From a virus (taxonomy: Duplodnaviria > Caudoviricetes), in the IMG/VR virus record IMGVR_UViG_3300031519_000069, positions 1-39,226 of that record: DNA of 39,226 bases. One strand, given 5' to 3'. The notes beneath the pieces were generated by a model. That model saw only the letters and a list, made by a program, of their open reading frames with translations, was not told where the DNA came from and ran no database searches. Shown piece by piece: positions 3,101 through 35,754 of the stretch (positions are counted from its first letter, which is position 1; the number at the start of each line of letters is the position of its first letter). A program made the translations under genes and the position numbers.

Positions 3101-5928
3101 AAGCCGAGTTAGTAGCTCAAGGTATAACCGATCCCAGTGATGCAGAAATTGCTGCATACGTCGGTCAAGGCGACGAGACTTTTCAGAGTACTAAGAATAC
3201 AGAAATACAAACTTACGCTGACCCAAGAGTTATAGACGATGCGGAAGCTAGGGCCGCACTACAAGCGCAAGGTATAGCTAATCCAAAACAAGAAGAAATT
3301 GACCAATTTACAGGTCAAGGCGATGAGAATTTTGAAACTAACAACATAGGCAAGGCTACTGATTACGCTAACCCATTAGCCCTATCCGCTGCAGAAATAG
3401 AAGACATCGCTGCAAAACAAGGGTACACCCTAGCAGCAGGTGAGGCAGAAGCTCTTTCAGGGCGGGTAATACCGGGACAAACAGAAGCTGAAGCTTTAGC
3501 AAGCCAAGAAAATACGTTTAACAACGCAGCTATTACAGCCGCGGAATTAGAAGCTATAGCTACCGCTCAAGGGTATACCTTAACTCCTGAAGATCGCGCT
3601 CTAATAGGAAACAACCCTAACGCTGCCCAAGAATTACTTAACGCAGGTAACCGGTTTGATGCAAGTGCGATAACAAGGGAAGAAATAGAAACCGCTGCAC
3701 GTAATGCGGGTATCGACCCTAAAGACCTTACACCCAGTGATTACGCGCTGGTTGGCACTATCACGTCAGCCGTAGATGCTGACGGTAACCCTGTAACTGC
3801 TGCGGATCTTTTAGACTACCAAGAAGGTGTTTTTGAAGGCACGGTAGCAGATGCAACTGCAGCAGAACGAAAAGCCGCAGCAGAAGCCGCTATTACTGCA
3901 GCCGTTACAGCCGCTGGCGCTCCTGCCCTATCTCCTACTGATCTTGAGCGTTATGTCGCAATGGCTATCGGTGGCGGGCTTACTATCGCTGAAGCAGTAC
4001 AAGCAGCAGAAGCTGATATTGCCGCCGCTGCTGTTACTGATGATGGCGCTGGTACTGACTCTGGTGGTGCTGTTACTGACGATGGTGGCGCTGCTACTGA
4101 CGATGGCGCTGTTACTGATGATGGCGCTGCTACTACTGGTGGTGTACTTCCTGATGATGATGTCGTTGTTACTACTGGTGGTGCTGCTGCTGGTACCGAT
4201 ACTAGTACTGACTCTGGTACCGATACTAGTACTGACTCTGGTACTGACTCTGGTACTGACTCTGGTACTGACTCTGGTACTGACTCTGGTACTGACTCTG
4301 GTACTGACTCTGGTACTGACTCTGGTGGTAATCAGAGCATTATGGATCAAGTAGTAGCTGCCATCACTGCAGCAGGTGTGACGTTAGCGCAAGGTAAAAT
4401 TGACGAGATTGTTGCTGATATTGTTTCTGGTGCCGCTACTAATATAGACGAAGCAGTCGCAGATAAAGTTACAGAGTACCAGCTTGGTAATGACACTGAC
4501 TCTGGTACTGATGACGGACTAGAAGAATCAACCATCGAGGGCGACCCAGATGATTACGTAAAAGTAAAAGATTTCAACCGTGAAGTAGGTACCTTACAGG
4601 ACAATATTGTAAAGTTAATTAATAAATTAGAATCAGAAGGGGCAACTCGTGATGAGGCTCTTGCTGCGGCTATTGGCGTACCTGCAGGGCAAACCGGAGG
4701 CCCATCGGGGTTATATGCCGAACTTGGCAAGTTTGCTACTTCAGATCAAGCCGAGGCAATCAAAAAAGTAGTTGATGGTATTGCTACAGAACTTGGTACG
4801 ACTGCTGATGATGTTGCGGCAATAAAAATTAAACTGGATACTCTTGTAACCAAAGACGATATATCAGGTCTTGCCACTAAGAAAGACGTAACAGATGCAG
4901 AGGGGCGTTTAGAGGCTCGCATAAACGAACTTATGACAAAAGACGGGAAAAACCGTCTTGATGCTGTAGACATCGCCTTAGAAGAACTGGCTACCGATCT
5001 AGGTACAACTAAAGAAGAAATAACTAAACAGCTAACAAAATTTGAATCTGATCTAGCTTTAGATATAGCGGAACTTGCAACCAAGCAAGACGTTTTAGAT
5101 TCCGAAAAGCGTATCCGCGATAAGCAAGACGAGTACGTACGGCAAGGTATGAAGGCAGATGAAGCCTTACAAGTCGCAATAAACGATGTTGCTAAAGAGT
5201 TAGGTGTAACTAAGGACGTTCTAACCGACCAACTTGCGGCTTTCCAAACAAAACTAGATGCAGATTTATCTCTACTTGCTACTAAACAGCAAGTTAACAC
5301 GCTTGAAACAGAGCTGTATTTAAAGTTAGCGGAGTACGAAGCACAAGGTAAAACTCGTGACGAAGCAACCCAATTAGCTATTAAGGATCTGGCTACTGAT
5401 TTAGAGACTACCGAAGATAATTTGATGACTCAGTTGGGGGTAACTCAAGACACCCTAACCAACAGAATTAATGAAGTTGAGACTAACCTTACTAACCAGT
5501 TCAATAGTCAGATCGAGTCTACCAAAGAACTTATAACCGAAACTGCGACAGAGACTCAAAAACAAATACAAACTACGGCAAACCAGAGCGCGGCTAGAGA
5601 CTTCTTTGATATGGTCTTGGGTTCTGAAGATCTTGAAGGGCAGCAAGTTACGGTAAGTCAGTCTCCTTTGGCGCAGATCAACTACATATATGACTTCCAA
5701 GACCCCTTAGCCAACCAACAACAGCGCGGGTTCTTTGGTGCAGCAAGTCCTTACGGAGAGTCGTTAGCTGCAGGGAAAAGCAGACGGCCCCAGACAATCG
5801 CTAATGTTATGCAGGGGCCACTGAACCTGCAAGGCGCACCAGTAGGCCCGATGGGTATGGCCGCAGGCGGTAAAGTAGATTATGATTTCCTAAACGAAAT
5901 CTCACAAATAATGAGTTTTGGAGAATAA
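181..5928 (+). CDS. Giant acidic virion-associated / putative ejection protein (1915 aa) with internal repeats
   Basis: Long ORF in the structural arm. It has two EF-hand-like 12-mers, ~50-aa repeats (DPRQVTIDEAKAEL..QG..DP...EI), a TDSG low-complexity linker, helical ATK[KQ]xV repeats and a C-terminal MAAGG motif. Function is inferred from position. Confidence 0.6.
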   Translation: MAAPNWKTYDTNGDGKLTDTELTTWNNVVRAYKNYVDSNFENTYEADIAASESGSSSTPAATNWWADDSTAWWDVKDPAAFFGVKGNRTEEQVARVQQFRDEFKYDLDGAKPTLQLLNSWIDGGIPTSEFKNYVGTGTTPPSTDPALVGIVGYDGTAPAQGNNWYEDFLSSVDAGTNAQLAKDIGALIGAATGTAKDYEGNINPDAYDEDGDGVLTGEERRAYDFAVAVDEGTIMTLSGEGAPSSTGEFSGSDASVNAWSNDAWTNFWEGLSSGSQLTLKNDLAASGLIETTNANGMPIPFSRAFQMLQGLMNMFITVSGFEITPTAMEQARSMNAGARGELQEKTRWIAQRVREGWTQEQARHLYYEWGGEGQEVNPNKTLSDTEIADIYQLYQAGEIPEGQYPATYAGDTSTITKTEVDWKRNKLLSAAQSPIAKASIEKLTDDQIRDRIATEQKEVAIMAGVNENSIYSPEFLQKRDELVAAGITNAAAILENVDPFSELRPLLYESAINKIGDAADALVARRDAAGGYSDLDPKTKNMLNLASFGIRAVGSMSQTFAGALALVGETSSDSILGRFGESLVNLASSIETQDFKDAADEVEARLGRTTGFWGTAKALFGSGDIPLEFLLRQVLPEVGEEILLSKITGGTTKGVKFDGANSEFKEFLTNPANRPDGAPTWLKDKLAILVGKDELGDMAELIAGTAGEAYDRAYFLAIDSTNPATDKPYTEEEARDFAYGVMGRATTGAFIVNRFAAGVSIDDMVENFFPGADNKAIREVLTAIQNNPTVKTFLSLTGEGASEGGEGAIAAYSVASDLVVLDSTINVLGETGAAGALGTALGSLVDISMTGGFAIDNAASSVAAAFNTDINDVLTTARTELDAGANLADVTAKMEESFNGMGLADVPLQTDILNGVDDSSYTTGLETAGKFEELGYTPTEEEINEYIGKSNEADTLNSVGTYVDPRQVTIDEAKAELVAQGITDPSDAEIAAYVGQGDETFQSTKNTEIQTYADPRVIDDAEARAALQAQGIANPKQEEIDQFTGQGDENFETNNIGKATDYANPLALSAAEIEDIAAKQGYTLAAGEAEALSGRVIPGQTEAEALASQENTFNNAAITAAELEAIATAQGYTLTPEDRALIGNNPNAAQELLNAGNRFDASAITREEIETAARNAGIDPKDLTPSDYALVGTITSAVDADGNPVTAADLLDYQEGVFEGTVADATAAERKAAAEAAITAAVTAAGAPALSPTDLERYVAMAIGGGLTIAEAVQAAEADIAAAAVTDDGAGTDSGGAVTDDGGAATDDGAVTDDGAATTGGVLPDDDVVVTTGGAAAGTDTSTDSGTDTSTDSGTDSGTDSGTDSGTDSGTDSGTDSGTDSGGNQSIMDQVVAAITAAGVTLAQGKIDEIVADIVSGAATNIDEAVADKVTEYQLGNDTDSGTDDGLEESTIEGDPDDYVKVKDFNREVGTLQDNIVKLINKLESEGATRDEALAAAIGVPAGQTGGPSGLYAELGKFATSDQAEAIKKVVDGIATELGTTADDVAAIKIKLDTLVTKDDISGLATKKDVTDAEGRLEARINELMTKDGKNRLDAVDIALEELATDLGTTKEEITKQLTKFESDLALDIAELATKQDVLDSEKRIRDKQDEYVRQGMKADEALQVAINDVAKELGVTKDVLTDQLAAFQTKLDADLSLLATKQQVNTLETELYLKLAEYEAQGKTRDEATQLAIKDLATDLETTEDNLMTQLGVTQDTLTNRINEVETNLTNQFNSQIESTKELITETATETQKQIQTTANQSAARDFFDMVLGSEDLEGQQVTVSQSPLAQINYIYDFQDPLANQQQRGFFGAASPYGESLAAGKSRRPQTIANVMQGPLNLQGAPVGPMGMAAGGKVDYDFLNEISQIMSFGE
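4192..4326 (+). repeat. Intragenic tandem repeat: 2 x 24 bp (GGTACCGATACTAGTACTGACTCT) running into 8 x 12 bp (ACTGACTCTGGT), encoding (TDSG)n
   Basis: Read directly; perfect 12-bp units span 4231-4326. Confidence 0.95.
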
Positions 5929-27162: not shown

Positions 27163-27179
27163 TTACTTCTCCTTGTAAA

Positions 27180-27712
27180 ACCATACCTGCCAAACCCTAC
27201 CTAACCAAACACAACCATACCTAACATAACCTAACCTTACCTGCCAAACCCAACCAAACCGAACCGTACCTGACCTCACCTGACCTAACCCCACCCTACC
27301 GGACCACACCTGCCATACCACACCTTGCCTCACCCTACCGAACCCCGCCATGCCATACCTGCCTTACCTGACCCTACCCAATCTCACCGGAACGCACCTA
27401 ACCATACCGTACCTAACCTGCCAAACCGTACCGCACCAAACCTCACCACACCGCACCTGACCTGACCCTACCTAACCTGCCATACCTCACCAGACCTTAC
27501 CTCACCACGCCATACCCCGCCCGACCTGCCATACCGTACCCTGCCGTACCTCACCCGATCCCGCCTGACCATACCGTACCTTACCGCACCTGCCAAACCG
27601 TACCTCACCGAACCTGACCTCACCGTGCCATACCAAACCGAACCCAACCATACCTGCCAAACCACACCCCACCACACCAGACCCCACCCCGCCCCGCCCT
27701 ACCTAACCTGCC
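27180..27712 (-). repeat. Array of nine units, each GGCA + (GGY-NN)x9-13, delimited by ten GGCAGGT motifs
   Basis: ACCTGCC on the + strand starts at 27185, 27239, 27308, 27357, 27416, 27475, 27524, 27588, 27652 and 27706. Spacings are 54, 69, 49, 59, 59, 49, 64, 64, 54 (all 5n+4). 83 of 88 internal scaffold triplets are GGY. Confidence 0.97.
27180..27712 (-). ncRNA. Candidate guide-RNA precursor array (VIPR-like vrRNA)
   Basis: Non-coding 5-nt periodicity; conserved scaffold with variable dinucleotides; starts 3 nt after the stop of the RAMP-partner operon on the same strand. Expression and processing are inferred. Confidence 0.65.
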
Positions 27713-27715
27713 AGA

Positions 27716-28213
27716 TTAGTTTCCTAGAAACTTCTTAATGGGTGACAATATATCGGCTAACTCAGATAGATCTTCGTACTTCTTTACAAACGAATCCAAC
27801 TCACGCTTCGCTGTCTTCAGTATTTTGTCCCTACCTTCAGGGTCAGCCAACATGTCAATGGTTGACATCCAAACTTTTTGCGAACCTTGTGGGGTATCTA
27901 TCGTTGTGCGTTGTAGCACACGGATAGTTTTTGGTGGCGTATCAGGGATAGGAGAATGGGATATAAACACAAGGTTGCGCTTCATACTCTTCTCAGTCAT
28001 CAGGCGATACTTCTCGCCAGCCACTGAATCGTTCCATTCAAAGTCACCGTGTAAGAAGTTTTGAGGGTCGCGTGCTATCTCTACCAACGATCCATCAGGG
28101 GCATAGCCCCCATGTGCCACATTTAACTCTTCTATTACTTCCAATACTTGAACAGGGTCAGACCGAAATCTGACCCCCTTTCTCCAAGCAACATCAGCGT
28201 TGGGTATACTCAC
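27716..28213 (-). CDS. Putative accessory protein of the RAMP-like/GGY-NN array system (165 aa)
   Basis: GTGA overlap with the upstream RAMP-like gene. LVEIARDP...LH..FEWND..AGEKYRL is a motif I recognise from phage proteins found next to such RAMP-like genes. Confidence 0.65.
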   Translation of the reverse strand: MSIPNADVAWRKGVRFRSDPVQVLEVIEELNVAHGGYAPDGSLVEIARDPQNFLHGDFEWNDSVAGEKYRLMTEKSMKRNLVFISHSPIPDTPPKTIRVLQRTTIDTPQGSQKVWMSTIDMLADPEGRDKILKTAKRELDSFVKKYEDLSELADILSPIKKFLGN

Positions 28214-28833
28214 AGTACAATCTCCGTCGTTTCTATTGGGAAGTCTGTATCGATTGCGAACCTACCATACTCACCAGCTTTTTCAGGTCTCCACTCACCT
28301 AGACCTACTCCGAATCCAGCCCGTTGAAATATGTTTAGGATGTTCTCAGGTGTAAGAGCCTCGCCGTCATACTGTAGCGTTAACTCTATAGCCCATGTTT
28401 TGAACTCAGGGCGATACCGTAGATCTGTTGACCCCATACCTACACGAACTACATCTTCTCGCATGATTGGTTCAAGCGTATCCATAAGGCAAAGAGGTTC
28501 ACCTGACTCACTGTCTGCATCTGCAATTATGAATAAGGACTTTCTCAGTAACGTCTTTTCAATACCTATATCTTTGTGAGCGGCATTGAGTAGGCATTTT
28601 TTAATACCCCCAGACGGAAACCCGTACGCTCCATCAGGAGTCCTGTGCATTGCTGCCTTGAACTCCCTATCTGGATCTCGTACATCTCGGTTCTTGGTCT
28701 TAACACCAGCATGTTTCTGCCGCATCATATGCTTGGCTTTCTCATCCCAGTTATGTTGAACCATTGGACTTGTACCACGTATGCGTAACCGCATCTCACA
28801 CTGCTTAATTGGCGCTAGAGTTACTCCGGCCAT
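28210..28833 (-). CDS. RAMP/Cas7-like RNA-binding protein (Vipr-like, 207 aa)
   Basis: N-terminal strand LRIRGTSP, FPSGGIKKCLLNAA helix, thumb-like DVVRVG...DLRYRPEF.TW and C-terminal glycine-rich loop AGFGVGLGEWRPEKAGEYGRF, the RAMP-style signature. AAGGAG SD present. Confidence 0.7.
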   Translation of the reverse strand: MAGVTLAPIKQCEMRLRIRGTSPMVQHNWDEKAKHMMRQKHAGVKTKNRDVRDPDREFKAAMHRTPDGAYGFPSGGIKKCLLNAAHKDIGIEKTLLRKSLFIIADADSESGEPLCLMDTLEPIMREDVVRVGMGSTDLRYRPEFKTWAIELTLQYDGEALTPENILNIFQRAGFGVGLGEWRPEKAGEYGRFAIDTDFPIETTEIVL

Positions 28834-28850
28834 AACACTCTCCTTCTCTT

Positions 28851-35414: not shown

Positions 35415-35754
35415 CGGGCCAAGGGTTAATCCCTTCGACTTGTAAACAAGTTAACATGAGATGACGGATAGTCTAGTAATACCTAGGGTCGCGTGATGAT
35501 CTGGATCTGGCTGGATGGATGCCCGTTTTCTGACATGGCGACCCCTACCTACCCCCTATGCACCACTTCTCCTACAGGGACTCCAGCATTACTATAGCAT
35601 TACTAATCTACACGAATAATGACCGTTTTTTTGAGTTCAGACCCCCCACCCCCCTATATATAGGAACACCCCCCGGTAGGAGTCCCAACTTCTTGTTGCA
35701 AAAAATTATTTTTGGTGTAAATTGGTGCCATTAGATACTAACCAGTGTATATCT

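Follow-up and report, generated by a model that had tools for sequence, protein, structure and literature searches.

The window, that is, the whole stretch of 39,226 nt that we have analyzed, covers only part of a phage genome: Its longer kin reach about 57–64 kb. It contains ejection-protein, DarB-like, polymerase, helicase and terminase genes. The terminase is 46–48% identical to those of Pelagibacter phages HTVC027P and HTVC023P and of phage DSL-LC04, and we infer that the phage is a podovirus. A compact cassette is found on the minus strand. Its first ORF (28833-28210, 207 aa) ends in the glycine-rich loop GFGVGLGEWRP...YGRF, the second (28213-27716, 165 aa) is joined to it by a GTGA overlap, and an array of short repeats starts at 27712, 3 nt past the stop of the second gene. 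All this agrees with a preliminary description of the sequence. The features are as follows:

27163..28850, minus strand: whole cassette, in a variable slot flanked by genes of 92 aa and 35 aa; the slot is empty or otherwise filled in kin
28210..28833, minus strand: vipr gene, 207 aa, RAMP/Cas7-like (SUSP1 Vipr profile match, hhalign, AF2 and Foldseek)
27716..28213, minus strand: accessory (vap-like) gene, 165 aa, phrog_15946, of unknown function; a homologue lies beside vipr in 64/80 loci
27178..27712, minus strand: staggered GGY-NN array, nine units and a terminal stub (pentamer parse, GGCAG junctions)
27659..27712, minus strand: unit 1, 10 pentamers; no target found
27595..27658, minus strand: unit 2, 12 pentamers; no target found
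27531..27594, minus strand: unit 3, 12 pentamers; decodes to AKT(I/V)HGRETRTI in HGGxSTG-domain genes
27482..27530, minus strand: unit 4, 9 pentamers; a short guide, with matches only in unrelated genes
27423..27481, minus strand: unit 5, 11 pentamers; no target above chance
27364..27422, minus strand: unit 6, 11 pentamers; no target in limited searches
27315..27363, minus strand: unit 7, 9 pentamers; compared with fetched loci, no target
27246..27314, minus strand: unit 8, 13 pentamers; no target found
27192..27245, minus strand: unit 9, 10 pentamers; compared with fetched loci, no target

The nine units span 27712-27192, and the stub follows. Each unit consists of GGCA and 9 to 13 pentamers; 92 of the 97 pentamers start with GGY. 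The array contains 88 pentamers in runs of at least four, as compared with 0.26 on average and never more than 8 in 1000 dinucleotide shuffles, and no second run of four GGY-NN pentamers is found on either strand of the window. The GGCA which opens a unit corresponds to a one-base register shift: All unit borders present a GGCAG/GT junction with a one-base overlap, and the units have neither tails nor spacers. An Rfam scan gives no match, that is, no hammerhead between units. Judged against the wording of the published legend, this is very likely the layout called staggered.

The 207-aa protein has 1345 homologues and belongs to no Pfam family. A profile of 71 sequences matches a single PDB sequence, the SUSP1 Vipr (36pp_D, E 1.1e-13), with 24% identity and an hhalign value of 98.1%. 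Its AF2 model (pLDDT 92.4) has an RRM core, a thumb and a G-loop, and Foldseek finds Csm3/Cas7 chains (best E 5.4e-6, TM about 0.5), as expected for a RAMP fold. The SUSP1 residues reported to grip GGY (H17, R138, D177, W178 and R179, according to the accessible part of 10.64898/2026.04.26.720927) align with H27, R141, E180, W181 and R182. H27, R141 and R182 are invariant in 71/71 homologues, position 180 is E or D in 71/71, and W181 is found in 55/71. On the other hand, K82 and K33, described as essential in SUSP1 Vipr in the same source, correspond to H86 and A42: The surface which clamps DNA is therefore not the same as in SUSP1. We have practically no doubt that the system belongs to VIPR, a class in which a small protein related to those of CRISPR is accompanied by guides made of five-base repeats. 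The preliminary description had matched it to VIPR, and rightly so according to the accessible text of 10.64898/2026.04.26.720920 and the homology to 36pp_D; its reservation that this might be a new member and not a new class was also correct, the class being already published.

The 165-aa partner belongs to an extensive family, which comprises 4256 clusters at E 0.001. Its model is of high quality (pLDDT 93.5), with no significant match in Pfam, NCBIfam, PDB sequences or Foldseek, and it does not align with the gene that follows vipr in SUSP1. No cas gene, cas1/cas2 or repeat-spacer array is found near the cassette, either among the listed ORFs or when the larger ones are scanned against protein families, again as the preliminary description had it.

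The association of genes and array is a general feature of these loci. Among the best 80 of 414 viral loci with a Vipr homologue, GGY-NN runs are found nearby on the vipr strand in 72, and on the opposite strand in none; they are absent from 212 control windows. Of the eight loci lacking such runs, four stop about 500 nt or less from vipr. The GGCAG junction is present two or more times in 62 of the 80 loci, and a partner homologue lies near vipr in 64. Some of the homologous loci deserve mention. The cultured Gordonia phage UmaThurman (L002:3123-3418) contains a vipr gene with 40% identity and a partner, and its annotation shows a hypothetical gene in place of a GGCAG-staggered array; the phage is a ready laboratory model for the staggered layout. 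Homologues are also found in Mycobacterium phages, for example Saal. Felixounavirus and related phages have a SUSP1-like Vipr (L001:2160-2381, 3612-3783), with 118 records at least 90% identical to the L001 protein. One locus (L042:4849-7507) has three arrays with about 290 pentamers, far above all others.

The runs which hold sequences of this phage come from brine and marine samples. Three DNA runs from brine have contigs with the array of the window: X2 and X3 (0 differences over the compared pieces) and X4 (3 differences); the window may come from one of them. Contigs of RNA run X17 contain pieces of vipr, vap and the array; such contigs carry neither RNA ends nor levels. Depth in RNA run X15 at 27657-27695 was considered as an orphan guide and rejected, since it corresponds to short low-complexity matches. 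A search of the phage polymerase against genome contigs, as a clue to the host, gives no relative. The window also has a G-rich motif at 35640-35680, upstream of a 219-aa gene and the large terminase, which is kept in many kin with G-runs of varying lengths; it is likely a terminus or packaging region.

Four of the 39 kin loci which contain both flanking genes have a cassette of the window type (L003-L006, found first through their Vipr), four have a distant Vipr (29%) elsewhere, and 31 have no vipr. The distant Vipr (L480, at G004:C1:36591-37175, L393 and L396-L398) is found at another position, together with a degenerate GGCGG-jointed array: In this phage group it was acquired separately. 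In L322, whose flanks are both 94–99% identical to those of the window, an unrelated ORF fills the slot, and one contig of a marine run joins across the cassette, with a short side of only 22 letters. From these comparisons the cassette appears to occupy a swappable slot. Some kin without the cassette (L328:2500-2660, L336-L342) present short tandem repeats with TTCTGCAACA between the 35-aa gene and a nuclease gene.

The arrays themselves are variable. Five close arrays (Vipr 96%) have 5 to 9 parsed units in different orders, and six of the nine units of the window have a near-identical partner among them. A variant in X17 omits exactly units 1 and 2 (118 nt). We infer that guides are reshuffled by unit-wise recombination at the junctions. 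Unit 3 is common to four of the six close arrays (window, L003, L005 and L007).

Unit 3 is the only one of the nine guides with a decoded target. The search pattern consisted of dinucleotides 1 to 10, each separated from the next by one free base, which corresponds to 1 in 5.5e11 per position. No match is found in IMG/VR; metagenome contigs contain 73 matching stretches. About one match would be expected by chance, a rough estimate since the base total of the collection is not given, and two or three unrelated matches are in fact seen. Of the 73 stretches, 70 are homologues of a single gene with an HGGxSTG domain; they include 34 distinct sites with varying skip bases, some loci being duplicates. 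The site lies on the coding strand, in frame, and the skipped base falls on the third codon (wobble) position, so that it reads AKT(V/I)HGRETR. When all 12 dinucleotides are considered, 75 sites score 23/24 (2 sites), 22/24 (51), 21/24 (11) or 20/24 (11), and therefore most matches extend beyond the ten dinucleotides searched. A 1-nt skip gives 23/24, as compared with 17–18/24 for skips of 0, 2 or 3 and at most 18 for shuffles; this comparison is not independent, as the loci had been preselected by the 1-nt rule. The variant of unit 3 in L005 reaches 24/24 on L580; for the unit of the window itself there is no 24/24 site, the best being 23/24.

Bacterial genomes give a similar result. One of 401 genomes matches in the family of a Rhodobacteraceae-labelled locus (reversed-pattern controls, 0), and two of 401 in the order of a Cellvibrionales-labelled locus (reversed-pattern controls, 1). 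Two of these three matches, in two bacterial genomes, are HGG genes at 23/24. Targets of unit 3 occur in at least two bacterial groups. In all four guide variants, dinucleotide 11 opens with an A. L580, L585, L591 and G765 are the only HGG sites which fit this letter, a slight and weak indication in favour of a host among the marine Gammaproteobacteria.

A further comparison was made with 263 units from homologous loci which had been fetched for another reason. A guide of L023 (Vipr 57% identity) matches the site of unit 3 at 24/26. Guides of L012-L014 (Vipr 61%) correspond to the HGGxSTG motif itself, with 23/26 in L555; within gene windows they reach 21/26, against at most 19 in 30 shuffles. 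Guides of L017-L018 (Vipr 59%) spell LHGGSSTGP at 19/24, a match which is suggestive only. The scaffolds of all these guides are unlike that of unit 3. The guides of three more distant VIPR lineages thus seem to spell the same gene, which suggests independent support for the target. It is very probable that unit 3 is truly aimed at HGGxSTG genes. The non-contiguous, gapped code proposed in the preliminary description is supported by these in-frame sites found under a 1-nt skip; its suggestion of competing phages or host genes as targets does not hold for the one guide decoded, which points to a gene of bacterial mobile islands.

We have also considered that the array might be a protein-binding or coding repeat without any guide function, the match of unit 3 being due to chance. 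Short ORFs do overlap the array, and eight guides are targetless. Nevertheless, the homology to a structurally solved Vipr, the same-strand linkage in 72/80 loci and the in-frame convergence of four lineages on one gene family all argue against this explanation, which is extremely improbable.

The HGGxSTG gene corresponds to NCBIfam NF041373; a literature search found no paper naming HGGxSTG. These genes sit on islands, often adjoining tRNA genes. In L521 the order is tRNA-Ser, cargo, HGG gene, primase-helicase, AlpA-like gene and tyrosine integrase; the site of unit 3 scores 22/24 there, below the best. A complete element is seen in L521 and L546, most other loci being partial or decayed: tRNA genes are found in 14 of the 60 loci scanned, primase-like genes in 12/70 and an integrase in 6/73, with many short contigs. 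The cargo of L521 (2695-4833) is a 712-aa cysteine-rich repeat protein with no NCBIfam match, possibly a defence gene.

The HGGxSTG protein gives a weak match to small terminases (E 0.004). Four of its six phage matches lie at record starts, and in one of the two phages viewed the gene is upstream of the large terminase. It may thus be a small-terminase-like packaging factor, although this is a weaker proposal. No HGGxSTG gene is found in the window or in kin loci. A conserved non-coding module lies about 100–360 nt past the unit 3 site in L519-L536, between the HGG gene and the end of the tRNA, with G-rich tracts and AAACTCAAAATTTT; it is possibly a packaging signal. AAACTCAAAATTTT is also found, in a different order, beside the G-rich motif ahead of the terminase genes in kin phages.

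Many of the matched genes might be decayed remnants, in which case the true target would be an active element that has not been sampled, or the guide would simply bind inert copies. For example, a stop is found near the site in 11/70 HGG loci, G381 has a lone HGG gene beside a tRNA-Ser, and the island of G765, at a tRNA-Met, has only a 140-aa integrase-like ORF. On the other hand, primase-bearing elements exist, and current selection is suggested by the retention of unit 3 in four of six close arrays and by the three other lineages which target HGGxSTG. We consider the remnant explanation improbable. That the HGGxSTG elements are active parasites of the phage of the window is a little more probable than the opposite.

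The searches with the other guides were less productive. Exact-match scans covered viral sequences for units 1, 2, 4 and 8, genomes for unit 5, and fetched loci or small genome sets for units 6, 7 and 9. The five IMG/VR pattern scans gave zero or chance-level matches. For unit 2 there are seven, none of which extends; unit 4 gives 43, in unrelated genes, this guide being too short to judge; unit 8 gives 116, with a best score of 21/26. Unit 1 was considered to be aimed at the G-rich motif around 35640-35660 and this was rejected: A single relative gives the best score, 15/20, and the motif is not among the 73 IMG/VR matches. In genomes, unit 5 has 102 matches, within chance, the best being 20/22 for the unit of the window and 21/22 for the variant of a relative. 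Two of these place the unit 5 family at 20–21/22 on a conserved transposase-like motif (L596:1501-1526, L651:545-570); we take these transposases to be IS3-like. In the family of G765, units 2, 6 and 8 match none of 21 genomes, and unit 5 matches 6/21 against 4 control matches, the two best in an unrelated gene. Checks on five genomes gave nothing convincing.

The guides of the window and of L003-L007 have no match clearly above shuffles in 163 kin loci or in 38 stretches taken from 17 longer records of kin, and the guides other than unit 3 have none in the 73 island loci; this includes units 7 and 9, compared with all three sets. No 1-nt-skip excess is found when 196 staggered units from homologous loci are compared with Vipr and kin loci. 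The best 1-nt-skip match within the window, a partial genome, is 17/22 (77%), below the 80% threshold stated in the accessible text of 10.64898/2026.04.26.720920.

These results bear on the possibility that related or competing phages are the main targets of the system, unit 3 with its match on islands being one guide in nine and not typical of the rest. Published guides of P. fulva target prophages (accessible text of 10.64898/2026.04.26.720920), eight guides have no assigned target, and kin could be targeted safely because most of them have no cassette (vipr is absent from 31 of the 39 loci that have both flanks). Nevertheless, the absence of clear matches in kin and the empty or chance-level IMG/VR scans make this explanation rather unlikely.

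The code of unit 3 matches an island gene, and therefore the phage likely silences parasites that would steal its packaging. In our preferred reading, which we consider probable, the host genome contains satellite-like islands, and a phage VIPR with staggered guides silences one of their genes, which is related to packaging. By analogy with the work on SUSP1, the array would be transcribed together with vipr and vap, and the transcript would be cleaved close to every GGCAG junction. Each pentamer would be covered by one Vipr subunit, which would hide GGY and present NN to double-stranded DNA, and the resulting filament would block transcription with no cutting. More weakly, the islands may parasitise the phage group of the window, and the remaining guides may aim at elements absent from the collections searched. 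A bolder and more doubtful proposal, which we put forward tentatively, starts from the convergence of guides from four phage lineages on the uncharacterised HGGxSTG gene. This gene would be the mark of marine satellites which integrate at tRNA genes and form a family not described so far, and its small-terminase-like product would hijack packaging in the podovirus group. In this proposal the tail-less array would be cut at its GGCAG register shifts through some novel mechanism, possibly with the partner protein as the agent.

The decoded target would link a marine phage group with candidate satellites, a pairing which the accessible text of PMC9618062 names among its unanswered questions. For the HGGxSTG protein the target offers a hint of function, and the processing of multiplexed guides could be studied on this compact array without tails. 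According to the same part of PMC9618062, marine phage satellites (VEIMEs) share integrase, primase/helicase, AlpA and small-terminase homologues. L521 has the integrase, primase and AlpA in common with them, plus the HGGxSTG gene.

The VIPR class was first described in 2026 (10.64898/2026.04.26.720920). In the accessible part of that work, Results and the legend of fig. S18 mention staggered vrRNA arrays, whose guides overlap by one base. As presented there, its sRNA-seq confirmed two layouts only, those with ribozymes and with single guides. The cutting of staggered arrays is thus apparently untested in that work, whose text gives no targets for them. A literature search on such arrays gave nothing beyond this paper. 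The system of the window resembles the published staggered VIPR in having vipr and one accessory gene, in being phage-encoded and in the absence of a self-target. Both present a one-base overlap, with 9–13 GGY/NN repeats per unit in the window and 9–16 in the accessible description. The GGCAG junction also fits the published wording, a comparison by description only. This type, or its target, may already stand in the figures or data files S1-S4 of that work.

SUSP1 has a type II VIPR (36pp), with a homologous Vipr, GGY-binding residues and a wobble-aligned 1-nt skip as in the window. In SUSP1, and probably here as well, the target is on an integrated satellite-like element, and SUSP1 VIPR restrains a satellite, according to the accessible text of 10.64898/2026.10.15.759431. 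The targets are different: an excision recombinase in SUSP1, the HGGxSTG gene here. SUSP1 guides are separate and have a structured 3' tail, with 0 GGCAG junctions in L708, whereas the array of the window is tail-less and has such junctions; the SUSP1 partner (Vap1) is not detectably related to the partner found here. Since there is no room for tails and the partners cannot be aligned, the system does not have the type II layout of SUSP1 and P. fulva. Other VIPR types have ribozyme spacers or a nuclease/helicase Vap; the window has no Rfam match, and its partner no family or fold match. The Cas7/Csm3 backbones of Class 1 CRISPR share the RRM core, thumb and G-loop with the Vipr of the window, which differs from them in its 5-nt period and gapped pairing and in the absence of cas1/cas2 or a repeat-spacer array. 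In summary, the system itself is no surprise, because the VIPR class is published: What appears to be new, judging from sequence matches, is a natural target decoded for a staggered-array VIPR and recurrent across lineages.
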